Assembly: GCA_964612335.1 (NCBI GenBank)
Contig: CAZTDU010000005.1
Location: forward strand, 20,729-84,728
DNA length: 64,000 nucleotides
From: an uncultured Enterobacteriaceae bacterium
GTDB lineage: Bacteria; Pseudomonadota; Gammaproteobacteria; Burkholderiales; SG8-39
Direction of reading: 5' to 3'
Each line of letters starts with the position of its first letter. Positions within the stretch are counted from its first letter, which is position 1. The notes beneath the pieces were generated by a model. The model saw only the letters and a list, made by a program, of their open reading frames with translations. It was not told where the DNA came from and ran no database searches. This document shows, piece after piece, positions 33,495 through 53,635 of this stretch. A program made the translations under genes and the position numbers.

Positions 33495-35000
33495 ATGTCG
33501 GTACCCGCACGGGACACCAGCGTTCGCCGGAGAACGATCGGCCTGATCTGCTCGGTCTGGGGCGACGAGTTCACCGGCTTCTTCTGCCGGTACGTGATTC
33601 CAACCATTCTCGCCAGGCAGAACCTGCCATGGCTCGCCGAGCACCACGACGTCGGCCTGCTGCTCTACACGACCGCCGCCGACCTCGCGACGATGGAAGA
33701 AGACCCGGGATTCCAGGAGGTGAAGCGCCTCGCGGCCGTGCGCTGCGTCGGCATCGAGTCGTTCGTCGCGGGTGCGCGCAACCACTGGGCCTACTGGCAA
33801 CACGGCGTGGCGGAGTTCAAGGATGACTACGAGGACTTCATCCTGCTGATCCCGGATTGCCTGTACGCGAACGATTGCCTGCGTCGGGTCGCGACGGCGC
33901 TCGAGACCAGCAAGGTCGTCTACTACGCCGTTCCGCAGGTCTGCCGCGAGCTGGTCGTGGGGCAACTGGAACGATCGACCGTCCGCGCACCGGGCGATCC
34001 GGCGATCCGGCTGCTCGAGCTGTCCGTCCGCGACCTGTCGGAGATCTTCGTCAGGTACATCAACCCCAAGCACGCCGCGGCGGTTCGCCGCCCCGACTTC
34101 TTCCTGACACATCCGGAGTACGTCCTGGACGTCGGCCCGGGAAGCGTGGGGATCATCGAGCAGATCTCGCACCCGCTTGCGCTGCGCAGCACCTTGGGCA
34201 GCATCACGCAATCGTTCAGCGCCGCGGACGAGCGCCAGGATGCCGCGCACCTGGGCCTGCTCGGACTCGGCTGCGAGTTCACCCTGAAGTTCATCGAGCA
34301 GTACTACCGATGGCCCGCCGAATCGATGTCGGCGTCGCGCTTCCCCAGCCTCGGCAGCTGGTGCCATACGTTTCTGGATCGCGGCATGACGCGCTATGCG
34401 CACACACAGGCGCGAGTGACGTTGCGCGGATCGGAAGTCGTCGCGACCGAGCGGCTGCCGTCGACGGGTCGGCGCAATCGCTACGCCTGTATAGCGCACT
34501 CCGTGCTCCAGTCGCAGTTCGCGGTCTTCGAGTTCGCCAACGCGGCAGGCAACGCGGATGCGCGACGCTGCATCGCGCTGGCGATGTGCCTGCCCGGGCT
34601 GCGCCGGCGGATCATGGAACTCGGCGAGCTCGTCACCGTGCTGATCCCCGCGCCGCGCGACCTGACCGCGATGCTGGGCGCATTGGAGAAAGCCGGCTCG
34701 CCCGGTGCCTTGGTCGAGTTCTGCCTGATGCACGTCCTGCCCGGCCACCTGCGGCTCCGGCGCGGGGAAACGTTCCGCCTCTGGCCGGCCGACGCTGCCT
34801 CGCGCCGCGTGCAGCACGTTCAGCTGGTCTCCCCCGCGGTTCCCGATCCCCGCATGTCGGTGGCGAGCGGAACGGTGCGCTCGTACGCCGCGCGCGTCAG
34901 CGCGCATGCCATCGTCTACGAGGTGGACCTGGACTACGGGAACGTCGATGCGATGCTGGCGCGCCTGGATCGGCGTCCGGCCGCACAGCGTCCTCACTGA
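33495..35000 (+). CDS. Uncharacterised protein: VWG(D) N-terminal domain + FAS1-like C-terminal domain (paralogue 3)
   Basis: IGLICSVWGDEF..IPTILARQNLPWL..LLLYTT..ILLIPDCLYANDC, and the C-terminal VTVLIPAPRDLTAML..FCLMHVLPGHL. The only plus-strand member of the family. Confidence 0.6.
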   Translation: MSVPARDTSVRRRTIGLICSVWGDEFTGFFCRYVIPTILARQNLPWLAEHHDVGLLLYTTAADLATMEEDPGFQEVKRLAAVRCVGIESFVAGARNHWAYWQHGVAEFKDDYEDFILLIPDCLYANDCLRRVATALETSKVVYYAVPQVCRELVVGQLERSTVRAPGDPAIRLLELSVRDLSEIFVRYINPKHAAAVRRPDFFLTHPEYVLDVGPGSVGIIEQISHPLALRSTLGSITQSFSAADERQDAAHLGLLGLGCEFTLKFIEQYYRWPAESMSASRFPSLGSWCHTFLDRGMTRYAHTQARVTLRGSEVVATERLPSTGRRNRYACIAHSVLQSQFAVFEFANAAGNADARRCIALAMCLPGLRRRIMELGELVTVLIPAPRDLTAMLGALEKAGSPGALVEFCLMHVLPGHLRLRRGETFRLWPADAASRRVQHVQLVSPAVPDPRMSVASGTVRSYAARVSAHAIVYEVDLDYGNVDAMLARLDRRPAAQRPH

Positions 35001-38104: not shown

Positions 38105-38551
38105 CTACCAGTCCGGACCGACCAGGTCCTCCGGGATGCGCTCCGGGCACAGCGGCAGGCGGACCGCCGCCGACAGCACGTCCTCCACGGCGGCGGTGTC
38201 CGCCATGCTTCGCAGCACGATGTCCTCGAGCACCAGGTGCAGCGTGGCACCTTGCCCGAAGATCGCCTCGTAGATCGCCGCGCGCCGCGACGCGCGCTGC
38301 GGCAGCATGTACATGCTGCACATCAGCACGCCCTCGAACTCCGACAGGTCGCGCACGATCCCCTCCAGCACGAGGTAGGAGTGCGGGAACATGTTCTCGT
38401 TCAGGTGCAGCTTGTACACGTAGCCCTTGCGCACGCAGTAGTCGCGCAGCACCAGCGACTGCACCGGCACCGGGATGCGCGCGCCGCCGAACTCGCGCGA
38501 CGTGACGTAGCCGCGATAGCCGTGGCGCACCGGCGTTGCCGCCGCGCTCAC
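38105..38551 (-). CDS. Small soluble protein resembling the 'sporadic carbohydrate cluster' LIC12192-type family
   Basis: GTG start. GYRGYVTSREFGGARIPVPVQSLVLRDYCVRKGYVYKL matches my recollection of that family. It is translationally coupled (GTGA) to the adjacent 2OG oxygenase, as described for the family pair. Confidence 0.5.
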   Translation of the reverse strand: MSAAATPVRHGYRGYVTSREFGGARIPVPVQSLVLRDYCVRKGYVYKLHLNENMFPHSYLVLEGIVRDLSEFEGVLMCSMYMLPQRASRRAAIYEAIFGQGATLHLVLEDIVLRSMADTAAVEDVLSAAVRLPLCPERIPEDLVGPDW

Positions 38552-39363
38552 TCCTCGAACCCCCCGGGCTGCTCGTAGCGCATGCCGACGCGGCTGGCCG
38601 CGCGCGTGGTGATCGGCAGGTAGAACGAGCCGAGCTTCTTCTCGTAGCTGGTGTAGGGCGTAAAGAGGCCCGTGAACCGGCAGTTGAGCGACCAGCGCGT
38701 GGTCGGCGTGTCGTTGACGACGTTACCGTGCAGGCAGCTCGAATCGAAGATCAGCACCTTGCCGTAGGGGATGTCGAGCCAGACGAGGTCGCGCTCGACG
38801 TGCGCATAAAGCGCGCGCATGTCGCCGAGCTTCTTCAGGTCCTTCGCCACCTCCTTCGTCTTCGCCTGGGGAAGGATGAACATCGACTTCCTGCCGGACA
38901 CGTCCACCAGCGGCAGCCACTGCACGACCTGGAACGGCGTCTCGCCGCCGTAGACGTCGGAATGGATGTCGAGCAGCGAGCTGTTGTCGTTGGACATCTG
39001 GATCGACAGGTTGACCCGGTTCTGCATCGCGAGCTCGTTGCCGACCAGCGCGGCGAGCAGGCTGCGGCCGAGAGCGTGGTACGTCGGCCGCAGCCAGGGG
39101 AAATCGTTCATCGAGCGGAACACGAACAGGCGCAACTCGTTCAACTTCTCGGGCGTCACGCGTTCGTGGATCGTGTCAAGGAACGCGCCGTGGTCGGCGG
39201 GCTCGGCGCACTGCAGGTGGCGGCAGGCGAGGCCGACCAGGGCGGCGCGAAGCTCGTCGAGCGCTGCGCGGTCGTCCACGTCGCGTATGACGTAGCCGTC
39301 GCGCATGAAGTCGCGGCTGAGCGCCGCTTCCTCCGGGGTGAAGAAACTCTCGACTACCGCCAT
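38548..39363 (-). CDS. Fe(II)/2-oxoglutarate oxygenase (PhyH-like; 'sporadic carbohydrate cluster' type)
   Basis: Starts at MAVVESFF. HxD in LDIHSDVYGG, a distal His in SSCLHGNV, and an Arg-x-Ser in TRWSLNCRF. Confidence 0.6.
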   Translation of the reverse strand: MAVVESFFTPEEAALSRDFMRDGYVIRDVDDRAALDELRAALVGLACRHLQCAEPADHGAFLDTIHERVTPEKLNELRLFVFRSMNDFPWLRPTYHALGRSLLAALVGNELAMQNRVNLSIQMSNDNSSLLDIHSDVYGGETPFQVVQWLPLVDVSGRKSMFILPQAKTKEVAKDLKKLGDMRALYAHVERDLVWLDIPYGKVLIFDSSCLHGNVVNDTPTTRWSLNCRFTGLFTPYTSYEKKLGSFYLPITTRAASRVGMRYEQPGGFEE

Positions 39364-39385
39364 CTCCCTGCTCCTCTCGCGTCGA

Positions 39386-39880
39386 TCATGCCGGCAACAG
39401 CATGCGTTGATAGTAGTGCAGCCACAGCGCGAACGCATCGTACGGCACCAGGCGCATCCGGTGCAGCGCGTCGTGGCCATCGACCAGGCGCAGGCCGGCG
39501 CCCTCGCCCAGGCGCATCGCGCCCACGCTTGCCGGCTCGATGCGCACCTCGAAGTACTCCCGGCACACCGAGCCGATGCCGACCGGGTCTACGCCGAAGC
39601 TGACATGGCCGAAGCGCACCGCGGCGGCCGCGCCGAGCTCGAGCGCCAGTTCCTCGCGCAGTTCGCGGCGCAGGGCATCGATGGCGCTTTCGCCGGGTTC
39701 GAGCGCGCCGCCGAAAAAGCCCCAGTGGTCCGGGTAGAAGATCGTCGGGATGGCATCGCGCTGCTGCATCAGGTAGCGCCCATCCCCGGTGTGCAGTATC
39801 GCCACCGCCGCGTCACCCGGCTTCAGCGGGCGCGCCGGCGCGAGGTCGAAGGCCGCCACGGGCAACGCGTCAGCCTGCAT
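39386..39880 (-). CDS. NUDIX hydrolase
   Basis: Nudix box [24 protein letters not shown]. 164 aa, overlapping the wzt stop by 11 nt. Confidence 0.8.
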
Positions 39881-40673: not shown

Positions 40674-41483
40674 CTACAGCCAGTAGGCGATTCTGGCCCT
40701 GGCGCGGGCAAAGAGCGCGAACGCCATCGCCCAGCCCGCCACCGCGAGCGCGGACGCGATCGCCCACGCCTGGGCGGATGGCACTTCGTTCATGAAGGGG
40801 GCGCGCGCAACCTCCATGACGTAGGCGAGCGGATTCAGCTCGATGATCCTGCGCGCGGTGCCGTCGCCGAGCTGGCTGGGGTGGTAGAACACCGGCGTCA
40901 GCCACATCAGCACGTTGAACGCGTTCTGCACCAGCAGCGGGATGTCGCGGAAGCGCGCCGACACCACCCCTGCGGCGAGCGCCATCCAGGCCACGTTGGC
41001 GACGAGCAGCGCGAGCCCGGCCGGGATCAGCAGGTAGGTCGCGCTCGGCACCATGCCGAACGCGAACGCGGCGATGAAGAAGATGACGACGGTATGCAGG
41101 TAGATCAGCGCGTTGCGCCAGAGGAGCAGCATCATGTACGTCCAGTACGGCCGCTTGATCTGCAGGATCGTCGGGCCCTGCTGGATGAAGCAGTTCGCGC
41201 CCTCGTTGACGCTGGTGGAGATGAAGGTCCACGTCACCAGGCTGATGCAGATGAAAGGCAGGTAGCGCCCGACGTCGATGCGGAACAGGAAGGCAAGCAG
41301 GAATCCCGTGACGGCGGCCTGCACGCCCATGCTGATCGTGACCCAGAACGGCCCGAGTACGGACCGGCGATAGCGCTGGCGGACTTCGGACAGCCCGAGC
41401 ACGTACCAGAGCCACCAGTTGCGCAGGCCGGCGACGAGGTCCGCCGCGGCGAGCCGGGCCTGCCGGCGCGCATCGAAGCTCAT
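40674..41483 (-). CDS. wzm: ABC-2 type polysaccharide exporter permease (Wzm/KpsM type)
   Basis: Starts at MSFDARRQ. EVRQRYRRSVLGPFWVTI is typical of ABC-2 permeases. About six TM helices. Confidence 0.8.
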   Translation of the reverse strand: MSFDARRQARLAAADLVAGLRNWWLWYVLGLSEVRQRYRRSVLGPFWVTISMGVQAAVTGFLLAFLFRIDVGRYLPFICISLVTWTFISTSVNEGANCFIQQGPTILQIKRPYWTYMMLLLWRNALIYLHTVVIFFIAAFAFGMVPSATYLLIPAGLALLVANVAWMALAAGVVSARFRDIPLLVQNAFNVLMWLTPVFYHPSQLGDGTARRIIELNPLAYVMEVARAPFMNEVPSAQAWAIASALAVAGWAMAFALFARARARIAYWL

Positions 41484-42637
41484 CGGGGCGCCTCCAGCAC
41501 GTCGTGCATGCCGGCGAACTCGCGCCTGATCGCGAGCAGGTCGTCCGCCTCCCAAACCCAGCGCTGCCACGGCCGCGCGAACGGCAGCTGCCCGCCTACC
41601 TCGAAGCCCTCGCGGCCGAGCACTTCCTCGGTCGTGAGCGCCGCGGTGTTCACCGGGCAGAAGAGCAGGTAGCGGCAGTGCTCGTTGTACCAGCACAGTT
41701 CCATCGGGCCGTGCACGACCGCCAGGTTCAGGTACGCGCGCTCGTATAGCGCCATGCGCAGGTGCACGTTCCACGCGGCGGCATCGAGCACGAGATGCCG
41801 TCGAAGGCCTTCGGGCAGCGGGTCGAGCGACTTCTCCGTATCCGGAACGAAGATCGCGGCGTAGCGCCGGGCATCGAGGCCGTCGGCAAATGCGACCCAC
41901 GCGTCGACGTTGCTGTTGCGCGCAGGCGTGTACGCATATTCGCGCAGCGTGATGACCACCGGTTCGCGGCCGGCAGCATGCGCGGCCAGGTACCTGTCTG
42001 CCTGGCCCAGCGCGGCGGCCGGCGCCTGCAGCAGCGGGAATACCGGCTCGCCGGCGCGCGCGGCGTCGCGCACCGCACGCGCGACCGGGGCCACCGGCAA
42101 GCCCGGGCGCCAGGCTCCGGGGTAGACGTGTCGCGTGCGGTCGCGGAACAGCGCCTCTGCCTCGGTGCGCGAGCCGCAGAGGGTGTAGCCGGAGCAGGCC
42201 GGAAGCAGTCCGGTCACCGGCACGACGAGGTTGTGCAGGCGCGAGCGCCGCGCGTCCGCGTCGACCGCGGCGTCATAGGCGGGCAGCTCGAGGCGCAGGC
42301 CGTCCACCTGTCCGGGCACGAACACGACGTGCACGCTGGCAAGCCCCAGCCGCCGGCGCTCGAGCTCCGCGCCGGCCATGTACGTGGCGATGTCGTAGGC
42401 CAGCGGACACAGGTGCAGGTCGAAGAAGAAGTACAGGGTACGTTCGTCCGCACCCGCGGGTGCGGACGCGAGGCTGCCGCGCAGGCCGCGCAGCAGCTTC
42501 GAGCGCGGCGCGACCAGCTCGTCCCGGATCCGCCGCACCAGCCAGCCGGCGCCGCGCTGCCGATACCAGTCCAGCGCCTGTCGCAGTCGACTGGTCAGGG
42601 CCGGCCTCGGCGCCTGCGTGGCCAGCGCGCCGCGCAT
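41480..42637 (-). CDS. Hypothetical protein (385 aa), translationally coupled to wzm
   Basis: A long ORF with ATGA overlaps at both ends. I see no recognisable motif. It is soluble and has a regular (non-Arg/Pro-biased) composition in its central part (LYFFFDLHLCPLAYDIATYM..). Confidence 0.5.
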   Translation of the reverse strand: MRGALATQAPRPALTSRLRQALDWYRQRGAGWLVRRIRDELVAPRSKLLRGLRGSLASAPAGADERTLYFFFDLHLCPLAYDIATYMAGAELERRRLGLASVHVVFVPGQVDGLRLELPAYDAAVDADARRSRLHNLVVPVTGLLPACSGYTLCGSRTEAEALFRDRTRHVYPGAWRPGLPVAPVARAVRDAARAGEPVFPLLQAPAAALGQADRYLAAHAAGREPVVITLREYAYTPARNSNVDAWVAFADGLDARRYAAIFVPDTEKSLDPLPEGLRRHLVLDAAAWNVHLRMALYERAYLNLAVVHGPMELCWYNEHCRYLLFCPVNTAALTTEEVLGREGFEVGGQLPFARPWQRWVWEADDLLAIRREFAGMHDVLEAPR

Positions 42638-43551
42638 CAGGACGCGGCGGCCAGGATCCGTTCGACCGACAGTCCGTGCGACGCGAGCAGGTCGTCGTGG
42701 CTGCCGTAGTTGTGGATGAACTCGTCCTGCAGCGTGAACGTCTTCAGGTCACAAGTTGCGCGGGAGTCCCATGCAATCTGCTTGGCCTGCGGCGCGAGGC
42801 CGCCCTGCGGCACGTGTTCCTCTATGACGATCACCTGCTTGTGCGTGCGCAGGGCCTGTTCGATTCCCGCGCGGTCCAGTGGCTTCACGGTGTGGCAGGA
42901 GACCAGCGACACCGACTTGCCCGCCGCCTGCAGCCTGTCGGCGACCTGCGCCGCCATCTTCATGATCACGCCATAGGACAGGATGCAGACGTCCGAACCA
43001 CGCCGGAGGTACCGCAGCTTGCCGAACACGAAGGGCTCGACGGCGTTCTCGGTGAGCCGGGGTTCCCCGGCCTTGCCGATCCTCAGGTAGACCGGCCCCT
43101 TGTCCTGGGTTGCGCAATGGCGCGTGGCGTCGATCGTCTCGAGCGGGTCGCAGGGCGCGAGGATCTGCATGTTGGGGATCGCGCCGGCGATGGCGATGTC
43201 TTCCATCGTGTGGTGCGTGCCGCCGAGCGTGGAATAGATGACGCCTGCGCCCATGCCGACCACGGTGACCGGAAGGTTCTGGTAGCCGAGGTCGTCCCGC
43301 ACCATCTCGAACGGCCGGTAGAGGGAGAACGTGGCGATCGTGTACGCGAATGGACGGCAGCCCTTGAGCGCCAGCCCCGCCGCCATGCCGATCATCACCT
43401 GCTCGGCCACGCCGACGTTGATGAAGCGCTCGGGATACTCCGCCTGGAACTTCGCCATCGAGCCCGCGGGCGAGATGTCGGCGACGACGATGTAGATGCG
43501 CGGATCGGCCTTCGCGCATTCGTACAGGGTCTCGGAGAACGTATTCCTCAT
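42637..43551 (-). CDS. Transketolase, C-terminal (pyrimidine-binding) subunit of split enzyme
   Basis: Starts at MRNTFSETL. FINVGVAEQVMIGMAAGLAL, GGTHHTMEDIAI, and NMQILAPCD. Confidence 0.85.
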   Translation of the reverse strand: MRNTFSETLYECAKADPRIYIVVADISPAGSMAKFQAEYPERFINVGVAEQVMIGMAAGLALKGCRPFAYTIATFSLYRPFEMVRDDLGYQNLPVTVVGMGAGVIYSTLGGTHHTMEDIAIAGAIPNMQILAPCDPLETIDATRHCATQDKGPVYLRIGKAGEPRLTENAVEPFVFGKLRYLRRGSDVCILSYGVIMKMAAQVADRLQAAGKSVSLVSCHTVKPLDRAGIEQALRTHKQVIVIEEHVPQGGLAPQAKQIAWDSRATCDLKTFTLQDEFIHNYGSHDDLLASHGLSVERILAAAS

Positions 43552-44372
43552 GCCAGTGCCTTGCCGAGCTCGTCCAGCGCCTGCCTGTACTCGTCCGGGC
43601 TCGGCGAGCGGTAGTGCCAGATCGGCACGTTCTCCATGTAGCTCACCCCCCTGCCCTTGGTGGTCTTCGCCACCACCATCATCGGGCGATCGCCCTTGCG
43701 CGACGCGACCGCATCGACGATGGCCGCGCTGTCGTGCCCGTCCACCTGCACCGACTCCCAGCCGAAGGCGGTGTACTTCTCCACCACCGGGTAGAAGCTC
43801 GGGTGCGTGACGCTGGTACGGCCCAGACTCTGGAAATCGTTGTTGTCGACGAAGGCAACGAGGTTGGACACGCCAAGCGACGATGCCATCATCGTCGCCT
43901 CCCAGGTCGAGCCCTCCTGCACTTCGCCGTCGGACAGCACGCAGTAGACGATGCCGCCGGTGCCGCGCGTCTTCTCCGCGTAGGCCATGCCGACGGCCAT
44001 CGACAGGCCGTGGCCGAGTGCGCCGGTGGACGCGGCGATGCCGGGATTGCCGTAGTCCGGATGGCAGCCCAGGCGGCCGTCGCTCTTGCAGTAGCGGTCC
44101 ATGTCGTGGCGGCTGAGCACGCCGAGCTCCTCGAGGATCACGTACTGGATCATGCAGCCGTGCCCCTTCGACATCAGGAAGGTATCCGGCGAGGCCCCGT
44201 CGGCACCGCGGCGCATCAGTTCGAAATACACCGCGTCGACGATCTCGGTGCACGAGTACGCCGAGCCGATGTGCAGCGCCTGCACCTGCTGCGAGATCTC
44301 CAGGATCCGCCGGCGGAACCGGTTGCAGCGCTCCCGGGCCGCCCGCGCGTCGATCTTCTTGCCTGCTTTCAA
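43548..44372 (-). CDS. Transketolase, N-terminal (ThDP diphosphate-binding) subunit of split enzyme
   Basis: HIGSAYSCTEIV, MSKGHG, GALGHGLSMAVGMA, and LSDGEVQEGSTWEA..VDNN (ThDP motif). Confidence 0.85.
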   Translation of the reverse strand: MKAGKKIDARAARERCNRFRRRILEISQQVQALHIGSAYSCTEIVDAVYFELMRRGADGASPDTFLMSKGHGCMIQYVILEELGVLSRHDMDRYCKSDGRLGCHPDYGNPGIAASTGALGHGLSMAVGMAYAEKTRGTGGIVYCVLSDGEVQEGSTWEATMMASSLGVSNLVAFVDNNDFQSLGRTSVTHPSFYPVVEKYTAFGWESVQVDGHDSAAIVDAVASRKGDRPMMVVAKTTKGRGVSYMENVPIWHYRSPSPDEYRQALDELGKALA

Positions 44373-44384
44373 GTCCCGCCTCGC

Positions 44385-45047
44385 TTATCCGGTGATGAAC
44401 GTCCAGTAATAGTCGCCGGTGTAGCCGGCTTCCGCGAATATTTTCTTCCAGCCGTCGGGGTAGTCGTGCGTATACGCCGTGAGCACCCAGTCCTCGAAAA
44501 GCTCTTTCTCCTCGGGCGTGCGGTAGCTGTCCACCTGGATGTAGGCCTTGCCGCCGCGCGCGACGCGCTCGATCTCGCGGATCGCGCCGACGCATTCGGC
44601 ACGCTCGAGGTTGTGCGCGGTGTTGATGCACACGACCGCGTCGAAGCTCTTGTCGGGGAAGGGCAGCTTCTTCATGTTGCCCAGGTGCAACCGGCCGACG
44701 ACCTCGGGTTCGCAATGCATCATCGCGTACTCGGAGATGTCGAGCCCGAACGCTTCGAGCCCCGGGCAGGCCTTCATGAAGTCCTTGACGAGGAAACCCT
44801 TTGCACAGCCGACGTCGAGCACCCGCATGCCGGGCTTCAGGCCCCAGTGCGCGACCATGTCCTCGGCGATCGCCACCCAGCGGCCATCGTAGCGATAGCC
44901 GCCGTAGCCGTATTCGCGCGCGCCGTCGAAATACTCCTGGCCGTACTGGCGCGAGATGCGGATGTGCTCGTCGGACTTGGCGCTCGCGCGCTTCTGGATG
45001 CTGCGCTTCGACGCCGGGTAGCGCCGCAGCAGGTTCACTTCTGCCAT
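44385..45047 (-). CDS. Class I SAM-dependent methyltransferase
   Basis: Starts at MAEVNLLRR. Motif I is VLDVGCAKGFLV, followed by FDAVVCINTAHNL and ARGGKAYIQV. Confidence 0.8.
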   Translation of the reverse strand: MAEVNLLRRYPASKRSIQKRASAKSDEHIRISRQYGQEYFDGAREYGYGGYRYDGRWVAIAEDMVAHWGLKPGMRVLDVGCAKGFLVKDFMKACPGLEAFGLDISEYAMMHCEPEVVGRLHLGNMKKLPFPDKSFDAVVCINTAHNLERAECVGAIREIERVARGGKAYIQVDSYRTPEEKELFEDWVLTAYTHDYPDGWKKIFAEAGYTGDYYWTFITG

Positions 45048-45108
45048 GTCGGTTCCGTCAGGGGCTGTAGCGGACTCAGAAACAGCCGCGATTATAGCTT
45101 CAGTAGGC

Positions 45109-46425
45109 TCAGCGCCCCCGCGAGCCGGCCAGCTCGCGTACGCGCGCGGCGATCGCCTCGCCGAGCATGGCGTTGCCCGCGTCGGTGTAGTGGCAGCAGT
45201 CGTCGACGTAGACGTCGCGCGAGGCGCGGCCGCGAAAGATGGCGGTTGCGTCCAGAACCGCGACGCCCGCGCGCGCGAGCTCCGGCGCCCTCGCGACGAG
45301 CTCCGGGTAGCCGGACTCAATGAGTGGAACCACCCATTTGTAGATGTGATCGCGCGCGATCGGCTCGTATTCGCCGGCTGCCGCCTTCCACCACTGGTTG
45401 GGCTGGATCACGTGCAGGTACAGGCTGCCGGCATCTCGCGCCTGCGCTGCCATGGCCCGCGACGCCGCGGCCCACTGCGCCGCGGTGTTGCGGTGGATCG
45501 CAGCCGCGTCGGCCGGCATCGGCGAGCGCGCGGCGGCAGGAAAGAGCGATCGCTTGTCCTCGCTGGCGCGAATGCCGGCTGCGAGCTTCTCGCCCCGGCT
45601 GCCGGAAAGGTCGGCGACCAGCCGGGCAGCCACGTAACAGGATGCGAGGCGGCACGATTCCGCCCTGGAACGCCACTCACGCGCGGCGATGCCGTAGTAC
45701 GCGGCGAGGTAGCGGGTGCCGGCATGCGGATGGTTCGGCGAACCCAGGCGCTCTATCTGCCGGCCCCAGGCGCCCCACAGTTCGTCAGACGGAAAGCTCG
45801 GCTCGACGCCGGAGGCCCAGTTGCGATGGCTGGTGACGATCTCGTTGAAGCCGTCGATGTTGAGCACCAGGTCGAAGTGCTGGCCGAGCGTCAGCGCGTA
45901 CGTGAGGGCATTCAACTGCTGGGGCTGCTTGAAGCCCGGCATGCCGAAGTTGAGGATGCGCACCCGCCTGCCTTCCCAGCCCGGGATGCGCGCGAGGAGC
46001 TCGCCGAACGCCGGCGACTTCTGCGTAGCCAGCGAGAACCCGCCGGCGACCGAGCCGCCGAACACGCCGACGATCAGCTCGCCGTTCTTCTTCGCCAGCG
46101 GAACGTCGCAGCAGCCTGGGTCGGCCTCGACGGCACTGGTCAGGACCTGGAAACCGAGGTTGTTGGTCGTCCACCAGCCGCCGCTGCGGCCGACGCGATG
46201 GATGAACGCGTAGTAGGGGTGGAACACTGCCTCGGCGGCGGTGTAGGGCTGGTCGGGCGCAGGCGCCACGCGACCAGCGACGTAGAACAGCGTCCCGTGC
46301 CGGTACAGGTAGATCGCGTTGGCCAGCAGTTCGATCGCCAGCGCGAGCCCGATCGCGCTGATTGCCGCTGCCGCGGCGACCAACCTAGCCTTTGTCACCC
46401 TGCCCGCCACGAGCACCCGAGGCAC
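45109..46425 (-). CDS. Membrane-anchored SGNH-hydrolase-like protein (subfamily B)
   Basis: VFGGSVAGG, NFGMPGFKQPQQ, LNIDGFNE, and VDDCCHYT (DxxH). N-terminal TM anchor. The start is ambiguous (ATG 46425 or GTG 46398). It overlaps the upstream gene end. Confidence 0.55.
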   Translation of the reverse strand: MPRVLVAGRVTKARLVAAAAAISAIGLALAIELLANAIYLYRHGTLFYVAGRVAPAPDQPYTAAEAVFHPYYAFIHRVGRSGGWWTTNNLGFQVLTSAVEADPGCCDVPLAKKNGELIVGVFGGSVAGGFSLATQKSPAFGELLARIPGWEGRRVRILNFGMPGFKQPQQLNALTYALTLGQHFDLVLNIDGFNEIVTSHRNWASGVEPSFPSDELWGAWGRQIERLGSPNHPHAGTRYLAAYYGIAAREWRSRAESCRLASCYVAARLVADLSGSRGEKLAAGIRASEDKRSLFPAAARSPMPADAAAIHRNTAAQWAAASRAMAAQARDAGSLYLHVIQPNQWWKAAAGEYEPIARDHIYKWVVPLIESGYPELVARAPELARAGVAVLDATAIFRGRASRDVYVDDCCHYTDAGNAMLGEAIAARVRELAGSRGR

Positions 46426-47488
46426 GCTGGATTAGCGGGCGGAGCAGTTCGGCCGTCAATGCGTGGCCTTCCGCACTGGGATGGCCCAGCACCCCGCCCT
46501 CGTCCAGCCACAAGCGCTCGAATCGACGCGGGTCGTCGCGATGGATCGCGTGCAGCGCGCCGTGAAGATCCAGCGTGGCATGGCCCGCCCTGCGAGCGCA
46601 CTCGACCACTTCTGCGCCGTACCAGTGGGGTTCCGGAACGGTCGACTCCTGCGCGCCCCACAGCATGACGACCACGACCTCGGCCCCATGCCTGGACCGG
46701 AAGTCCTTCAGGCGCTCCATCAGCGCGCAGGACACGCGCACGCCGTCCTTGTCCGACATCACGCGGTGGTACTGCCCGCCGTGGTCGATCCAGTAGGAAA
46801 TCAGCGGCGGGCGCGTCATTGTCCAGTGCACCAGGTACGAATGGCCGAGCAGCCTGCGCGCCAGGCCAAGGCTGCGGGACGAACCTTCGAGCCTCTGGAC
46901 CGGGACGCCGCGCAGCACCGCGCGCCCGCCTTCCAGCGCAAACCACGGCTTCGCGCCTCCGCCATAGACGTCGTAGCTGTTGCGGAAGCTGTCCTGCGCC
47001 AGGATGCCGACGATCAGCGCCGATGGCTTGACGACCGGCGCCAGAGCTTCGGCACGCAGCACCATCTGGTCTACGCCCCACGCGCCGGCGGCGGCATTCA
47101 GCACCGGGCGCCCTGCCAGGCGCTCGAGCTGGGCGGGCCAGGTCTCTGCATCCCGCACGCCGGAGCCGGCCGTGAACGAATCGCCGACCGCCAGGATCGC
47201 GCCCGCAGGCAATGCCGCGAGCGGGGGGCCATTCGTCCGTATGCCGTGCGGTCCGGTCGTCAAGCCCGAGCCAGGAGTGCCCGAACCCTCCTTCAGGCGC
47301 CAGCCGAGCTGCGGATCGAAGTCGAGCGCCCCGCTGTTGGTGCGCACCAGGTCGAGCGCCTGGGACAGGAAGTTCGTGCCGCTGAAAACCGGAACTCCGT
47401 TGGCGACGCGGAGTCCGACTTCGAGCACCAGGCACATGCTGGCGACAGTCGCCGCCGCCAGTGCGATGTTCTGCAGCGCGCGCTTCAT
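46385..47488 (-). CDS. Membrane-anchored SGNH/GDSL hydrolase (subfamily A)
   Basis: MKRALQNIALAAATVASMCLVL (anchor), ILAVGDSFTAGSGV, and NAAAGAWGVDQ. A clear paralogue of 35886..37220. Confidence 0.7.
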   Translation of the reverse strand: MKRALQNIALAAATVASMCLVLEVGLRVANGVPVFSGTNFLSQALDLVRTNSGALDFDPQLGWRLKEGSGTPGSGLTTGPHGIRTNGPPLAALPAGAILAVGDSFTAGSGVRDAETWPAQLERLAGRPVLNAAAGAWGVDQMVLRAEALAPVVKPSALIVGILAQDSFRNSYDVYGGGAKPWFALEGGRAVLRGVPVQRLEGSSRSLGLARRLLGHSYLVHWTMTRPPLISYWIDHGGQYHRVMSDKDGVRVSCALMERLKDFRSRHGAEVVVVMLWGAQESTVPEPHWYGAEVVECARRAGHATLDLHGALHAIHRDDPRRFERLWLDEGGVLGHPSAEGHALTAELLRPLIQRASGARGGQGDKG

Positions 47489-47534
47489 CGCCGAGCCGGA
47501 CGTGCCCGCGGCCGGGACGCGCAGGCGCGGATGC

Positions 47535-48251
47535 TCACGCCCTTGTCATCATCATGATGCCGTTCGCCAGCGGCAGCGCGATGCGCTGGTAGTCGTTGCG
47601 CGTCGCGGCGTAGTCGAGGAAGGCCCTGGTGCCGGCGCCTTTCTCGTTGGTCGGCTTCGCGTTCACGACGTCGCCGTGGAAGAAGCAGTCGTCCACCAGC
47701 GAGATGCCGCGCGGCGACAGCAGCGGCTCGGTCATGACGAAGTAGTCCTTGTAGCGCTCCTTGTTGCCGTCGATGAAGATCATGTCGAACTTGCGGTCCT
47801 TCGGCAGCTTCTCGATGATCTCGAACGCGTCGCCCTCGTGCAGCGTGATGCGCTTGTCCAGGCCGTTCGCGGCGAAGTTGCGGCGCGCGATGGCCGCGAA
47901 GTGGTCGAACTTCTCGATGGTGACGACTTCGCCGCCCTCGGGCAGGGCCCTGGCGAAGTACATGGCCGAAACGCCGATGAACGCGCCGATCTCGAGCACG
48001 CGCTTCACGCCGGAGACCTGGATCAGGAACTGCAGGAATCGCAGGCTGACCGGGTTCGAGGCCATCTCCTCGACCGTGAACTTGTCGGTCTTCTCGAGCT
48101 TGAACTCCTGGTCGGGGCTGAGGATGCCGCTCGAGCGGCAGATGGTGTCGTACAGGCCGGAGACGTAGTCGCCGCCGTCCTTGTAGTGGTAAGTGTGCTC
48201 CTTCTGGTCGGGAAGGAGCTTGTCGCAGAAGCGCACGGGCGTGGTGGTCAT
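47535..48251 (-). CDS. Family 3 (caffeoyl-CoA/cation-dependent type) O-methyltransferase
   Basis: VLEIGAFIGVSAMYFA, VVTIEKFDH, and FDMIFIDGNKERYKDYF. Confidence 0.8.
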   Translation of the reverse strand: MTTTPVRFCDKLLPDQKEHTYHYKDGGDYVSGLYDTICRSSGILSPDQEFKLEKTDKFTVEEMASNPVSLRFLQFLIQVSGVKRVLEIGAFIGVSAMYFARALPEGGEVVTIEKFDHFAAIARRNFAANGLDKRITLHEGDAFEIIEKLPKDRKFDMIFIDGNKERYKDYFVMTEPLLSPRGISLVDDCFFHGDVVNAKPTNEKGAGTRAFLDYAATRNDYQRIALPLANGIMMMTRA

Positions 48252-48270
48252 GGTTCTTTCCGGGGTGAAT

Positions 48271-49434
48271 TCAGACGATCGATTTCTGGTAACAGCCTTC
48301 GCAGATCCTGGGCAGCCTGCCCTGCAGGTGCGCCTCGCGGAACGCCGCGTATTCGCTGCCGTGCCAGACGTCGGTGAACGTGCGCGTGTCGCCCAGGCCG
48401 CCGTCGACCTGGTAGACGTCCGGGTTGCCGATGTAGCAGCAGGGGACGATGCGGCTGTCGGAGGATACGTAGGCGCGCTCGAACGGCCACGCGCAGAGCC
48501 TGTCGCGGTCGCCGAGCTGGTAGCGCTCGGTCGCGTTCCAGAAGCTCACCCGAACGCCGAGGCGCGCGCCCCGCTCGATCAGCGGCATCAGTTCCTCGGC
48601 GCCCAGCGCGCCTTCGGCAGTCGCGGCGTCGTTGCGCTCGCGCATGTCCTCCAGCCCCCAGTCGCTCAGCTCGAGGGAGAACACCTGGTTGGTGAAGCCG
48701 AGGTCGGCCGCCAGGTCGACCAGCGCCTCGAGCTGGTGGCGGTTCGAGCGCTGCACCACGGTCCACATCTTGGTGCGCTCGATGCCGAGCGACCGGCAGT
48801 AGGCATTGATCGTGCGGCAGTTCTCGGTGACGCGGCGGAACACCGAACCGACGCGGATGGCCTCGAACACCTCGGCGGTGGCGCCGTCGATCGATATCTG
48901 CAGCTCGTTGACGCCGCTGTCGATCAGGTGGCGGTAGTTGTCCTTCAGGTGCAGCAGGGACGCGTTGGTGGTGGTCCGCACCCAGATGTGCCGGGCGCGG
49001 GCGTAGCGGATCATGGCGAAGAAATCCTCGCGCTGCAGCAGCGGCTCGCCGATGCCCTGCAGCTTGATCTCGAGGAGGCCGTACTGGTCGTCGATCAGCT
49101 GCCGGAACGCTTCCAGCGGCATGTCTTCCGCGCGCTGGCCCTTGTTCCAGCCGGGCACCACGCACATGGTGCAGCGGAAGTTGCAGCGGCTGACGTTCTC
49201 GATGTCCAGCTTGATCGGCAGGTAGTCGACCGTTGCCGACCGGCGGCGCGACGCGAGGTAGCGCTCGTAGTTCTCGCGCTTGCGCGGGTCGGAGGCCAGC
49301 GCGAGCTCGCGCTCGCGCGCATAGGCGGCGGCGCCGGCGGCAGGCTCGGGCGCGGGCAGCGCGCGCAGCGCCCGGCGGCGCCGCTCCGCGGCGGCGTCCT
49401 GGGGTGCTGACGGGGCGTGGATCGCGCCGCCCAC
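48271..49434 (-). CDS. Radical SAM enzyme with C-terminal SPASM-type domain
   Basis: CNFRCTMC (CxxxCxxC), GIGEPLL, and the C-terminal Cys pattern CAWPF..VPCCYIG..CEGCY. The N-terminal limit is uncertain. Confidence 0.8.
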   Translation of the reverse strand: MGGAIHAPSAPQDAAAERRRRALRALPAPEPAAGAAAYARERELALASDPRKRENYERYLASRRRSATVDYLPIKLDIENVSRCNFRCTMCVVPGWNKGQRAEDMPLEAFRQLIDDQYGLLEIKLQGIGEPLLQREDFFAMIRYARARHIWVRTTTNASLLHLKDNYRHLIDSGVNELQISIDGATAEVFEAIRVGSVFRRVTENCRTINAYCRSLGIERTKMWTVVQRSNRHQLEALVDLAADLGFTNQVFSLELSDWGLEDMRERNDAATAEGALGAEELMPLIERGARLGVRVSFWNATERYQLGDRDRLCAWPFERAYVSSDSRIVPCCYIGNPDVYQVDGGLGDTRTFTDVWHGSEYAAFREAHLQGRLPRICEGCYQKSIV

Positions 49435-49438
49435 GGGA

Positions 49439-50218
49439 TCAGAGCACGCCGTCCGGCGCGTTCTTGTCCAGGTACACGATGTAGGAGCGGCCCCACCAGC
49501 CGATGTCCAGGTGCCGGAGGAACTTCCAGCGCGTGGTCTTCTGGTATTCCAGGAACGCGCGGGCCACCCCCTTGCTGGGCGAGCCCTTGTAGCCCGCGAA
49601 CAGGTCGTCGACGTAGATGACGGTGCCTTCCTGCAGCAGCGGCTCGAGGAACCTGAACACCGGCACCGCGGATTCGTAGAGGTCGCAGTCGATGTTCACC
49701 AGCATCGCCTTGCGCCCGGACTCGACGAGCTCCTTCTGCAGGCCCGCGGTGAGGCTCTCGGAGTAGAAACCCTTGACCGTGCGCACGTTGTCCACGTAGT
49801 GCCCCTGCTCGCGCACCATGCGCATGAACTCGTCCTCTGCGGTGGTCAGCGCACCGCGCTTCCAGATCTCGACGCTGGTGTCGGAGGTCGGCTCGGGCAG
49901 GCCCTCGAAGCTGTCGAAGGCGAGGAACTTCATGCTCGAAAGGTTGTGGCGGCGCGCCTCGGTGAGCGACATGCGGAACGTCCTGCAGCGATGGCAGCCG
50001 AACTCGTAGTAGTCGCCGACGACGCGGTTGTCGGTGAGAAAATCGTAGGTACGGCGGAAGAAGAGCGCCTTCTCGGTCTGGCGGTTCGCCTGGTTGTAGG
50101 AGATCTCGTCCTCGCGTCCCCACGCCGCGAGCGCGCGCGCGTCCGGGAGCACCACCCAGGGCTCGCCCTGCATGCCTTCGATGCCGGCGATCGGCGAGGG
50201 TTTCTTTGCGTTTGCCAT
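49439..50218 (-). CDS. TylF/MycF-family (macrocin-type) sugar O-methyltransferase
   Basis: GDYYEFGCHRCRTF, AFDSFEGLP, and NIDCDLYESAVPVF are typical TylF blocks. Confidence 0.75.
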   Translation of the reverse strand: MANAKKPSPIAGIEGMQGEPWVVLPDARALAAWGREDEISYNQANRQTEKALFFRRTYDFLTDNRVVGDYYEFGCHRCRTFRMSLTEARRHNLSSMKFLAFDSFEGLPEPTSDTSVEIWKRGALTTAEDEFMRMVREQGHYVDNVRTVKGFYSESLTAGLQKELVESGRKAMLVNIDCDLYESAVPVFRFLEPLLQEGTVIYVDDLFAGYKGSPSKGVARAFLEYQKTTRWKFLRHLDIGWWGRSYIVYLDKNAPDGVL

Positions 50219-50284
50219 GCCTGGTTCCTCTCTGCTTTCCGCTTGCGCGTCGGTTGGGATTGTAATGCCGTACCCGGTGCCGCC

Positions 50285-51469
50285 TCAGGACCTGAGCTTC
50301 TCCGCCACGCCCATGGCGTGGTCGATGGTGTCGTCGATGTCGACGTTGTAAAGGTAGCTTCCCGCCCGCCCGATGGAGAAGACGCCGTCCGGCATCAGGT
50401 CGAAGTAGCGCTTGGCCTTCGCCTTCTCCGACTCGAAAGGCATCGGGTAGTACTTGCTCTTCGACGACGGGATCTCGATGGTGATGAGCGTCGTCGGCGC
50501 CTTGTGCAGGGTGAACTTCTTGTACTCGACGATGCGCGTGTACTTCTCGGCCCCGGCGTAGTAGATGAAGTACACGTCCGGCGGCAGCGCAAACTCCACC
50601 GGGAGCACGACCGGGATCAGGTCGCGGCCCACGTAGGGCAGTTCGCCGTAGCACGACTCGAAAAGGTAGTCGGGCGAGATGGTGTTGACGATGATGTCGA
50701 AGCGCTTCTTCTCGCCGGCGATGACCACCGTCTTCTTCGGGATGTCGTACTTCTCGATCCGGGTGCCGAGGTGCACCTTGATGCCCGCCGTGGCGATCTT
50801 GAAGTAGTCGTCGTAGCCGTTGTGGGCGATCGGGTAGGCGCTGATGGCGGTGTCCCAGGCCGCGCGCGGCCCCTCCTTGATGGTGACGCCCTTGGGCGAC
50901 CACGTGAAATCGTCGATCTTCCTGTTGTCGTCGATGAGCCACATCTTCTTCGAGTACTCGTTGACGAACTTCTGGTACAGCGTTTTGCCGATCGAGTAGA
51001 TCCAGTACTCCTCGAAATCCTTTGCCTGGGAAGCCTTGTTCAGGCGCATCAGCTCGCCCGGCTTCAGGGCGGCGACCGCCTCCGGCGACATCCCGGCGAG
51101 CGCGCCCACGCTGAGGGCATTCAGCTCCTCCTGGATCTGGCGCGCCTCGGGCATCTTCGGCAGGTCGTCGCGGTGGATCGGGTATCCGTAGAAGGTGCCG
51201 TCGCTCTCCACGTAGGTGAGGAACTGGTGCTCGGCGCAGCGCCGCATCGGGCAGTAGGTGTTGAGGTAGTGGAAGATGTGTTCCTTCGGCGTAAGGAAGT
51301 GCCGCGGCCCGAAGGTGTAAGGGTGCCCGCCCAGGTAGCGGGTCTTGACGCCGGCGCCGAGGAACGGCGCAGCCTCGACCAGGGTCACGTCCCAGCCGCC
51401 CATCAGCGAAAGCTGATGCGCGCTGGCGCAGCCGGCGAACCCGCCGCCGATGATCAATGCAGTCTTCAT
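50285..51469 (-). CDS. UDP-galactopyranose mutase-like flavoenzyme (nucleotide-sugar pyranose/furanose mutase candidate)
   Basis: FAD fingerprint ALIIGGGFAGCASA, NEYSKKMW, and the C-terminal GRAGSYLYNVDIDDTIDHAM (compare Glf GRxGxYxYxDMD). The substrate is unknown. Confidence 0.7.
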   Translation of the reverse strand: MKTALIIGGGFAGCASAHQLSLMGGWDVTLVEAAPFLGAGVKTRYLGGHPYTFGPRHFLTPKEHIFHYLNTYCPMRRCAEHQFLTYVESDGTFYGYPIHRDDLPKMPEARQIQEELNALSVGALAGMSPEAVAALKPGELMRLNKASQAKDFEEYWIYSIGKTLYQKFVNEYSKKMWLIDDNRKIDDFTWSPKGVTIKEGPRAAWDTAISAYPIAHNGYDDYFKIATAGIKVHLGTRIEKYDIPKKTVVIAGEKKRFDIIVNTISPDYLFESCYGELPYVGRDLIPVVLPVEFALPPDVYFIYYAGAEKYTRIVEYKKFTLHKAPTTLITIEIPSSKSKYYPMPFESEKAKAKRYFDLMPDGVFSIGRAGSYLYNVDIDDTIDHAMGVAEKLRS

Positions 51470-51482
51470 GTTTCGCAGTCCC

Positions 51483-52355
51483 TCATGCTTGTCGGGCGAG
51501 TTGCAGCCCCTGATCGAGGCTGGTGTAGCGGAAATCGGGAAACGCGGAACGGCATCCCGATACGTCGAATGGCCGCAGCCCGTTGTGGGGCATGGGTCCG
51601 GTGCGCGGGCTGCCCTTGATGGCCACCACCTTGCCCGACAGTTTCACGACCTTCTCGGCGATGCTGCGGAACGAGTGGACCTCGCCGGTCGCGACGTTCA
51701 GCTCGCCCTCGCTGCGGCGCATCAGCACCCGGGCGGCGAGCTCGGCGACGTCGTCGATGTAGACATGGTCGCGCTGTTCCTCGCCTTCGCCAAAGAGCAC
51801 GATGTCCTCGCCCTTCTCCGCGAGGCGACGGAAGCGGTTGGGCCCGTAGCCGTTGTGGGGATCCTGCGCGCCGTACAGCAGGCTGGGCCGCAGCATCGCG
51901 ATCGGCGCCTTCACTTCGGCGCGGAACATCACTTCGCGCGCCAGATGCATCACGCCATGCAGGCTGCCGGGCGCCGCGCAGGATGCCTCGGTCAGCGGCG
52001 CGGCGCTGTCGGCGTACACCGCATCGGAGCTGATGTTGACGACGTGCGAAAGGGAGGCGGAAGCGGCCGCCTGGACCATCGCCCGCGCGATGACCATGTT
52101 CTGCACCAGCATCGCGCTGTCCTTGCACGGCGCGATCGCGGACACCGCGACGAAGGCATCGCCGTCGCGCAGCAGCGCGGCGAGGCGGCCGGACGCATCC
52201 GGCGAGAGGAGATCCACGTCCCGGCGCCCCAGCGCCAGCACATCCACGCCGTCGCGCGCCAGCCGCCGCCGGATCGCACCGCCGACGAAGCTGCCGGCGC
52301 CCATGATCACCACGCGGCGCGGTGCAACGGGCGCGGGGGTCAGGTGCTTCAGCAT
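51483..52355 (-). CDS. Extended-SDR-fold NAD-binding protein with atypical active-site region
   Basis: Starts at MLKHLTP. Rossmann VVIMGAGSFVGGAI and ISSDAVY. At the position where paralogues have YGxSK, this protein reads HGVMH (by-eye alignment). Confidence 0.7.
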   Translation of the reverse strand: MLKHLTPAPVAPRRVVIMGAGSFVGGAIRRRLARDGVDVLALGRRDVDLLSPDASGRLAALLRDGDAFVAVSAIAPCKDSAMLVQNMVIARAMVQAAASASLSHVVNISSDAVYADSAAPLTEASCAAPGSLHGVMHLAREVMFRAEVKAPIAMLRPSLLYGAQDPHNGYGPNRFRRLAEKGEDIVLFGEGEEQRDHVYIDDVAELAARVLMRRSEGELNVATGEVHSFRSIAEKVVKLSGKVVAIKGSPRTGPMPHNGLRPFDVSGCRSAFPDFRYTSLDQGLQLARQA

Positions 52356-53635
52356 GCGCCGCGCACCGTGGCGCGCCCCAGCGTATGCATGTCCAGGCCC
52401 GCGGCTGCGGCCAGCTTGAGGTCGAGCACGGAATACGGATCGAGCACGGTGCGCCCTTTCATGACGTTGGCAATCTCCTGCGGCGGGATCCGGCGATACT
52501 GCGGCCACGGCGTGAGGATCATCAGCGCATCCGCGCCGCGCGCCGCATCGAGCGCCTCGGGCAGCGCGGTGAGGTGCGCGTGCCGGACCGCGGAGGCCGG
52601 GACCACCGGATCGTGCACGCGCAGCGCGACGTCCGGCAGCGCGGCGATGGTCGCGACGGACGGCGAATTCTTCACCGAGTGCGTGTTTTCCTTGTACGCC
52701 AGCCCCCAGACCGCGACGACGGCACCGGGGTTGTCTCGCAGCACGGCCTCGCGCAGCGTGCGCGCCGCCCAGCCCTTGCGATGGGCGCTGTTGGCAACCC
52801 ACGCCTTGACGACGCCGGCGTCGGTTCCCTGTGCATCGGCGAACCGGATGACGGTGGCGAGGTCGCGCTCGAGGTTGCCCCCCGCGATGCCGAGGCCAGG
52901 GGCCAGGTACGCGTACTGGCCGATGCGCCGGTCGAGCTTGAGGGCCGGGACGATCTCGGCCCAGTCGGCGCCGATCTTCTCGCACAGCTCGGCCAGCGTG
53001 TTGGCCGTGCTGACGGACGCGACCAGGCACATGTTGATCGAGATCTTGGCAAGCTCGGCGCTCTCGAAGCGCATCGGCAGCACCGGGCAGCCGTGCGCGG
53101 CGAGGAAGGCGGCATACGACGGCGGCAACGGCGCCGCGGGGTCGGCGCAGCCGACGATGTAGCGCTCGGGCTGCAGCGCCCTTTCCACCGCGCGGCCGAA
53201 GACGAGCGTCTCGACCTGGTAGATGATCGTGCGGCCCGCGCGCTGCCGGCTGCGCGTGAATCCCGGGGGAACCTGCGACAGGACCACGATGACCGCGTCG
53301 TGTCGCGTCGCGCCCAGAACCAGCTCAAGCAGGTCGCCGATCGGACCGAGGTCGCTGCGCCCCGCGTCGTCGGTCGGGACGTCCGGCGCCACATAGACGA
53401 CGTCGCAGGCCGACAGTTCTGCCGCGCTCGCGGCGAAGGAAAGGCGCGCCGCGTTTCGCGCGACAAGCTCGTCCAGTTGCGGCTCGGAGACTGGGAGTTC
53501 GGCCCTGCGCAATGCATCGATCCGGGCGCCATCCGGGTCGAAGCAGACGGTGCGAAAGCCCTTCTCGGCTGCGCAGACGCCGGACACCAGGCCCAGGTGG
53601 GTCATGCCCGCGAATCCGATCACCGGGTTCGTCAT
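52349..53635 (-). CDS. UDP-glucose/GDP-mannose dehydrogenase-family protein (catalytic Cys apparently replaced)
   Basis: Starts at MTNPVIGFAGMTHLGLV (Rossmann). ESAELAKISINMCLV, LDRRIG.., and GLAYKENT. The canonical GGSC(F/L)PKD loop reads IAGGNLERD. Confidence 0.8.
   Translation of the reverse strand: MTNPVIGFAGMTHLGLVSGVCAAEKGFRTVCFDPDGARIDALRRAELPVSEPQLDELVARNAARLSFAASAAELSACDVVYVAPDVPTDDAGRSDLGPIGDLLELVLGATRHDAVIVVLSQVPPGFTRSRQRAGRTIIYQVETLVFGRAVERALQPERYIVGCADPAAPLPPSYAAFLAAHGCPVLPMRFESAELAKISINMCLVASVSTANTLAELCEKIGADWAEIVPALKLDRRIGQYAYLAPGLGIAGGNLERDLATVIRFADAQGTDAGVVKAWVANSAHRKGWAARTLREAVLRDNPGAVVAVWGLAYKENTHSVKNSPSVATIAALPDVALRVHDPVVPASAVRHAHLTALPEALDAARGADALMILTPWPQYRRIPPQEIANVMKGRTVLDPYSVLDLKLAAAAGLDMHTLGRATVRGAC

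Follow-up and report, generated by a model that had tools for sequence, protein, structure and literature searches.

A 64,000-nucleotide stretch of DNA from an uncultured Enterobacteriaceae bacterium (contig CAZTDU010000005.1; the whole stretch is called here the window, and all positions refer to it) carries two overlapping genes whose products keep the folds of well-known sugar dehydrogenases and have lost their canonical catalytic residues. One of them, P0001, has the fold of a UDP-glucose dehydrogenase (UGDH) without the catalytic cysteine; the other, P0002, is an extended short-chain dehydrogenase/reductase (SDR) with His-x3-His in place of Tyr-x3-Lys. Judged from their sequences, they belong to two uncharacterised protein families that are defined by these altered active sites, and that databases mis-annotate as "UDP-glucose 6-dehydrogenase" and "UDP-glucose 4-epimerase", respectively. 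Comparative data also support the idea, already put forward in a first-pass annotation of the window on the basis of adjacent redox genes, that both proteins act with a neighbouring Gfo/Idh/MocA oxidoreductase (hereafter Gfo) as one unit of non-standard sugar chemistry. The scheme that we favour, with about as much confidence as doubt, is that the three enzymes form a redox module tailoring the side chain of a nucleoside diphosphate (NDP)-heptose or NDP-octose, in which P0001 would be the former of a C6 ketone. The gene content suggests that the whole cassette probably makes a keto or deoxy surface sugar of seven or eight carbons, and not a sugar acid.

The altered active sites

P0001 matches all three UDPG_MGDP_dh Pfam domains (PF03721, PF00984 and PF03720) and passes the TIGR03026 nucleotide-sugar dehydrogenase model (206.4 bits for a cut-off of 189.8), and its AlphaFold model (pLDDT 89.5) superposes on UGDHs with TM scores of 0.85-0.88 in Foldseek. 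It falls far below the cut-offs of the UGDH equivalogs (TuaD, 176.6 versus 700; AglM, 130.8 versus 670; PRK15057, 50 versus 757), as well as those of the N-acetylmannosamine (ManNAc) dehydrogenase equivalogs. Structure searches with the P0001 and P0002 models returned generic UGDH and extended-SDR folds only, and no closer solved relative.

The first-pass annotation had aligned both proteins by eye, and its register turns out to be correct when phmmer alignments to solved structures are used. For P0001 (aligned with the UGDHs 4a7p, 3gg2 and 2y0e), GIAGGNLERD falls on G(y/c)GGSCFPKD, such that the cysteine becomes Asn254 and Lys263 becomes Arg257, while Asp264 is kept as Asp258; the GGxCxxKD motif with its catalytic cysteine is thus lacking. 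The segment AELAKISINMCLV aligns with sELiKYaaNafLA and keeps Lys197 and Asn201 (ELiKYaaN reads ELAKISIN). Four further replacements, which go beyond the first-pass annotation, accompany that of the cysteine: besides Lys263, Thr118 becomes Gln121 (KSTVP reads LSQVP), Glu145 becomes Phe146 (PEFLREG reads VETLVFG, the first glutamate being kept as Glu142), and Tyr10 of BceC becomes His13, since the dinucleotide-binding motif GxGYVG is replaced by GMTHLG, for which the consensus of the P0001 clade is G-x-[ST]-H-L-G. The complete signature of P0001 is therefore G-M-T-H13-L-G, Q121, E142-T-L, K197, N201 and GGN254-L-E-R257-D258. Its Asp33 fits the binding of NAD+.

These substitutions can be read against the enzymology of UGDHs from Streptococcus pyogenes, BceC and human. 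The residues kept in P0001 are those that serve the first hydride transfer (Glu141, Lys204, Asn208 and Asp264 of the S. pyogenes enzyme correspond to Glu142, Lys197, Asn201 and Asp258), and the residues replaced are those that serve the formation of the thiohemiacetal and thioester and its hydrolysis. With Asn254 in the place of the nucleophile, P0001 cannot form the thioester, in agreement with the first-pass view that the classical route to a uronic acid is closed. The only cysteine after residue 254 is indeed the C-terminal Cys428, as had been noticed. A nucleophilic cysteine elsewhere in the protein was considered and rejected, none of the eight cysteine columns being invariant in the clade. 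Ser120, just before the signature glutamine, is a cysteine (LCQVP instead of LSQVP) in 23 of the 82 loci that we compared (see below); not being universal, it is no family-wide replacement nucleophile.

Nor is the altered loop a peculiarity of this genome. GGN[LI]ERD is present in all 120 of the closest P0001 homologues (67-81% identity), which answers the question raised by the first-pass annotation of whether orthologues conserve the asparagine. HMMER was also run exhaustively against 1.84 billion representatives (50% clusters), and gave 150 best matches that go down to 33% identity. In their unfiltered alignment the cysteine position holds 125 Asn, 15 His and a single Cys. All 150 score at least 245 bits, versus a maximum of 163 bits among canonical UGDHs of the PDB, and the Cys-less proteins therefore constitute a distinct and large clade. 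Within it, His13, Gln121, Glu142, Lys197, Asn201, Arg257 and Asp258 are 97-100% conserved, the alignment having been pre-selected for Asn or His and for Arg-Asp at the loop, so that the conservation of Arg257 and Asp258 and the Asn/His split are partly a result of this choice. Lys197, Asn201 and Asp258 are invariant in this alignment, and Glu142 occurs in 97 of 99 sequences.

One could imagine that P0001 still forms a uronic acid in a four-electron reaction by dispensing with the covalent intermediate, that is, via a gem-diol as in histidinol dehydrogenase, with Asn or His254 and His13 placing the water. The retention of Glu142, Lys197, Asn201 and Asp258 would suit such a reaction, as would the histidine found instead of asparagine in 15 of the 150 representatives. 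We nevertheless consider this very unlikely, because the residues of the second UGDH half-reaction and of hydrolysis have all changed together, and because a constant second oxidoreductase partner (described below) would be superfluous.

P0002 presents a similar picture. It has the Rossmann fold and N-terminal glycine motif of an extended SDR, matching PF01370 (84.7 bits), and its AlphaFold model (pLDDT 93.2) gives TM scores of about 0.75-0.84 with NDP-sugar 4-epimerases, GDP-fucose synthases and Campylobacter heptose reductases. In phmmer alignments to 6kv9, 6wjb and 6zl6, His133 falls on the catalytic tyrosine and His137 on the lysine, with high posterior probability; Tyr-x3-Lys is thus replaced by HGVMH, while the paralogous SDRs of the window have kept the canonical motif (YGRSK and YGVSK, as first reported, and YALSK). 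The catalytic serine is retained (SSDAVY) and conserved among homologues. HxxxH is found in all 119 of the closest homologues; among syntenic orthologues from 70 loci, 63 have HGxMH and seven YGxMH. The second histidine being fixed and the first position alternating between His and Tyr, both of which are possible general acids, this suggests that the first position is still the catalytic acid.

P0002 also has Arg43 and Arg44 after beta-2, the latter nearly invariant, and from these arginines and its short size of about 290 residues (typical of NADPH-dependent reductases) it is probably NADPH-dependent. It scores well below the reductase equivalogs (Fcl, 53 versus 500; RmlD, 47.5 versus 224). 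In the window, residues 19-25 of P0002 (52292-52300) read GAGSFVG, with a serine at the second glycine of GxxGxxG, a replacement seen in 11 of the 119 close homologues, most of which have GxxGFVG; it could weaken or change the binding of the cofactor in this particular copy.

Canonical catalytic residues being missing, one may ask if P0001, P0002 or both are non-catalytic pseudo-enzymes acting as scaffold or regulatory subunits of Gfo. A few distant P0001 representatives (P0150, P0155, P0181 and P0205) do look truly degenerate, having lost Lys197 and Gln121 as well. For the families at large we regard this idea as extremely unlikely: over 33-80% identity there is hardly any variation in the residues that replace the canonical ones, in the motifs that bind the cofactor or in the catalytic residues that are left, and the Tyr/His alternation at one position of the SDR suggests a retained acid/base role. 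Pairwise dN/dS is moreover in the same range for the two altered genes as for the canonical Gfo gene (0.08-0.42, mostly 0.14-0.30; rough values, dS being near saturation). From this conservation and these ratios we conclude that P0001 and P0002 are under purifying selection and are not decaying pseudo-enzymes. The first-pass annotation had named positions left unconserved in a degenerate protein as a finding that would refute it; what the orthologues show is the opposite, the new residues being invariant or close to it.

A conserved trio and the chemistry it may perform

When each species was represented by one genome, the signature peptide of the dehydrogenase was found in at least 588 species; Bradyrhizobium, Labrys, Azospirillum and Polynucleobacter are among the carriers, together with many uncultured members of the Proteobacteria, Nitrospirae and Acidobacteria. 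The gene order recurring in the 82 loci compared is SIS isomerase, HAD phosphatase, transaldolase, two canonical SDRs, a nucleotidyltransferase-PfkB fusion, Gfo, the dehydrogenase, the His-His SDR and a methyltransferase, often followed by a split transketolase. In the 65 loci with enough flanking sequence for partners to be counted, Gfo lies directly upstream of the Cys-less dehydrogenase in 61, while 57 have the SDR as a neighbour (46 downstream, 10 upstream between Gfo and the dehydrogenase, and one downstream at a greater distance). The His-His SDR is absent from the remaining eight, among which are three Bradyrhizobium species. In these three (L059, L069 and L073), the dehydrogenase is directly followed by the methyltransferase and split transketolase, with GLF-, TylF- and radical S-adenosylmethionine (SAM)-like genes nearby.

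The order of the trio is Gfo-dehydrogenase-SDR in the window and in 42 loci, and Gfo-SDR-dehydrogenase in Gallionella (L001, 8182-11290) and nine others, so that the SDR gene has moved while staying within the unit. The order nucleotidyltransferase-kinase, Gfo, dehydrogenase is kept even in relatives of 41-52% identity, in which the SDR motif is HGAAH or HGAMH. Gene fusions tell the same story for the Gfo pairing: P0160 (719 aa) naturally joins Gfo to the dehydrogenase in one chain, at 43% and 46% identity with the proteins of the window. In P0234 (722 aa), a classical adh_short SDR (YAVSK) is fused to a Cys-less dehydrogenase. Finally, in the window 4 nt are common to the Gfo stop and the start of P0001 (ATGA, 53632-53635), and P0001 overlaps P0002 by 7 nt (ATGCTGA, 52349-52355; the latter overlap had already been seen), which suggests, from the DNA itself, translational coupling of the three genes. 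The transcription order is Gfo, P0001, P0002: the first-pass annotation was right to place Gfo next to the pair, but had it following the pair, whereas it comes first in the direction of transcription.

What might be the substrate? The short transaldolase of the cassette passes TIGR02134 (362.7 bits for a cut-off of 281.95), while its other enzymes fall short of the models for ordinary heptose synthesis: the SIS isomerase scores 51.5 bits with GmhA (cut-off 209), the HAD phosphatase 117.6 bits with GmhB (cut-off 178) and the nucleotidyltransferase-kinase 152 bits with HldE (cut-off 521). These scores do not prove, but are compatible with, a substrate other than ordinary heptose. The substrate of P0001 is likely a seven- or eight-carbon NDP-sugar produced by the transaldolase, isomerase, kinase-nucleotidyltransferase and phosphatase of the cassette.

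The scheme that we favour would run as follows. The transaldolase, the SIS isomerase, the HldE-like enzyme with reversed domains and the HAD phosphatase would make a nucleotide-activated C7 or C8 sugar. P0001, with NAD+ and its retained Lys, Asn, Asp and Glu, would then oxidise the secondary C6 hydroxyl of this NDP-heptose or -octose to a ketone, a two-electron step for which no cysteine is needed. Since further oxidation of a ketone is not possible, selection would have dropped the thioester apparatus, and Asn/His254, His13, Gln121 and Arg257 would have been brought in to accommodate the longer side chain. Coupled to this oxidation, Gfo would carry out a redox step at the next carbon, leaving a keto or deoxy side chain; with an octose, the net result of Gfo and P0001 would be a dehydration that yields a keto-deoxy side chain. 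P0002 would be a ketoreductase or epimerase finishing the product, with His133 as proton donor in place of the tyrosine. The product would go into a surface polysaccharide, a destination proposed because the genes are surrounded by an O-antigen/ABC-exporter cluster.

The first-pass annotation had instead considered that the reaction may stop at an aldehyde or be a different one; with a substrate of the UDP-Glc/GDP-Man type, the former would make P0001 a hexose nucleotide-sugar 6-dehydrogenase halting for want of its cysteine. Such an enzyme would indeed keep the fold and the first-step residues and lack the cysteine, as P0001 does. We think nonetheless that this has little chance of being correct: the gene sits within a dedicated module for the activation of higher sugars and is inherited together with it across phyla, and the protein scores far below every UGDH or ManNAc dehydrogenase equivalog cut-off. 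Free sugar 6-aldehydes are reactive, and we know of no pathway that proceeds through one. In the C7 or C8 sugar of the cassette, C6 is a secondary alcohol, at which a two-electron oxidation ends with a ketone; this end point explains the loss of the cysteine better than a stop at an aldehyde.

A more serious competitor, although still rather unlikely in our opinion, is that P0001 works on its own, forming a ketone or a C7 aldehyde without any dehydratase-type couple with Gfo; its carbonyl would feed the split transketolase-like thiamine diphosphate (ThDP) enzyme or the methyltransferase or, in other loci, an aminotransferase, with Gfo and the SDR acting at other positions of the ring. Transketolase-type enzymes require carbonyl acceptors, and a split transketolase is present in many loci; the methyltransferase directly follows the SDR/dehydrogenase pair in 68 of 82, and DegT aminotransferase genes occur in L001 and L084. 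On the other hand, the link to Gfo, with its 61 loci of 65, the 4-nt overlap and the natural fusion, is far tighter than that to the transketolase, and is more in favour of a coupled reaction. One can go further and speculate that the side-chain carbonyl made by P0001 accepts a two-carbon unit from the split transketolase-like enzyme, followed by methylation, so that the cassette would extend or branch the chain on the way to C9-C12 higher sugars of O-antigens, in which the His-x3-His SDR, as a new catalytic variant of its superfamily, controls the configuration at the newly formed centre; we think this quite unlikely.

If the favoured scheme of a C6 ketone former coupled with Gfo is right, hundreds of bacterial species carry an undescribed keto or deoxy surface sugar of seven or eight carbons, made by a chemistry so far known from one antibiotic pathway, and two enzyme classes would have been re-tooled at the active site, one into a ketone-making UGDH fold and the other into a His-His SDR.

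The locus in the window

Table 1. Genes of the cassette and its accessory block in the window
Feature	Positions	Strand	Remarks
Cys-less UGDH-fold protein P0001, 428 aa	52349..53635	minus	clean open reading frame translation
P0002, extended SDR with His133-x3-His137, 290 aa	51483..52355	minus	clean open reading frame translation
Gfo/Idh/MocA oxidoreductase, canonical EKP motif	53632..54555	minus	constant partner of P0001-type dehydrogenase
Bifunctional protein, N-terminal cytidylyltransferase-like nucleotidyltransferase and C-terminal PfkB sugar kinase	54572..56119	minus	domain order reverse of HldE
Canonical extended SDR (YALSK), GalE/4,6-dehydratase-like	56122..57126	minus	
Canonical extended SDR, GalE-like, Tyr-x3-Lys as YNKYK	57123..58130	minus	motif from translation
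Short transaldolase	58159..58893	minus	passes TIGR02134
GmhB-like HAD-IIIA phosphatase	58918..59502	minus	below GmhB cut-off
SIS-domain sugar-phosphate isomerase, weakly GmhA-like	59448..60029	minus	
Class I SAM methyltransferase	44385..45320	minus	
Split transketolase-like ThDP enzyme	42637..44372	minus	N part 43548-44372, C part 42637-43551
Variable accessory block, SDR to methyltransferase	45109..51469	minus	partly common to L019, L034 and L063

The GC content at third codon positions is about 0.88 in Gfo, P0001 and P0002, which is typical for coding sequence of this genome (about 69% GC). The accessory block comprises six genes, encoding a UDP-galactopyranose-mutase-like (GLF-like) flavoprotein, a TylF-like methyltransferase, a radical SAM/SPASM enzyme, an O-methyltransferase, a GDSL hydrolase and a 438-aa protein without Pfam match. 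In the first four, the GC content at codon positions 1 and 2 is below that of the P0001/P0002 pair, which is not the case for the GDSL and 438-aa genes. Further downstream are an ABC-transporter ATPase and more SDRs, the surroundings being those of a polysaccharide export (O-antigen/ABC-exporter) cluster; this cluster also contains open reading frames of 385, about 308, 310, 148 and 501 aa (40674-42637, 38105-39480 and 33495-35000) with third-position GC of the coding type and no Pfam match. With the GTG start given in the list, the HAD phosphatase gene shares 55 nt with the SIS gene and its product has 194 aa, versus 177 aa in Gallionella; translation probably begins about 17 codons farther on. 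A sequence-word search of sequencing runs for signs of expression found no RNA run, and one DNA run, a sludge metagenome, with 6% of the words.

Relation to known systems

Taken one by one, both proteins have well-studied relatives. P0001 shares its three-domain fold and first-step residues with the UGDHs HasB of S. pyogenes, BceC of Burkholderia cepacia and human, and differs from them by having Asn/His for Cys, His for Tyr10, Gln for Thr118, Phe for Glu145 and Arg for Lys263. P0002 has the fold and the conserved serine of GDP-L-fucose synthase, RmlD and the NDP-sugar 4-epimerases; unlike them, it has His-x3-His (Tyr-x3-His in a minority of its family) in place of Tyr-x3-Lys.

For the system as a whole, the closest studied analogue that we can propose, by gene content, is LmbL with LmbZ/CcbZ in the tailoring of the lincomycin/celesticetin octose. 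There, GDP-octose is assembled by LmbR (transaldolase), LmbN (isomerase), LmbP, LmbK (phosphatase) and LmbO, before LmbM, LmbL, the NAD(P)-dependent oxidoreductase LmbZ/CcbZ and LmbS/CcbS turn it into GDP-lincosamide (PMC4351081; PMC12945683); a C8 dehydrogenase is the function listed for LmbL, and a C8 oxidoreductase that for LmbZ (PMC4351081). Both systems have a transaldolase, a SIS isomerase, a kinase, a HAD phosphatase and a nucleotidyltransferase for an activated higher sugar, with one or more GalE-like SDRs in the cluster, and both associate a UGDH-family protein with a Gfo/Idh/MocA oxidoreductase. They differ in their setting (an actinomycete antibiotic cluster versus a Gram-negative polysaccharide-linked cassette), and the cassette of the window has in addition the methyltransferase and the split transketolase, with no adjacent aminotransferase.

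Several points weigh against our scheme and should be acknowledged. The comparison of LmbL and LmbZ with P0001 and Gfo is one of gene content, the joint 6,8-dehydration of GDP-octose by LmbL and CcbZ having reportedly been described by Wang et al. in PNAS in 2020. In place of LmbP and LmbO, which are of another type, there is here a fusion of PfkB and cytidylyltransferase-like domains of reversed HldE type, and no DegT aminotransferase gene lies beside the module in this window. If the sugar is a heptose, beta-elimination in the side chain is not possible and the formation of the ketone alone applies. The role given to P0002 is the weakest part of the scheme, since the lincomycin pathway has no counterpart of this extra His-x3-His SDR and since the gene is absent from eight of 65 loci.

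A second parallel is found in Coxiella burnetii, where the O-antigen region cbu0674-cbu0678 encodes a phosphoheptose isomerase, two members of the epimerase/dehydratase family and CBU0678, an HldE-like protein with reversed domains, and where cbu0678 is required for full-length (phase I) lipopolysaccharide (LPS) (PMC5843353; PMC13552124). By the published annotation, the reversed order of kinase and adenylyltransferase and the types of neighbouring genes are the same as in the window. Should the favoured scheme hold, its chemistry would also matter in medicine, through the antigen, since the agent of Q fever needs a cassette of this architecture (again by annotation) for full-length LPS.

In the literature that we searched, no described counterpart was found of the His-x3-His SDR partner or of the polysaccharide cassette as a whole. 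By analogy with LmbL and LmbZ/CcbZ, the couple formed by the Cys-less dehydrogenase and Gfo probably represents a relative, and a widespread one, of a mechanism that a single antibiotic pathway has made known.

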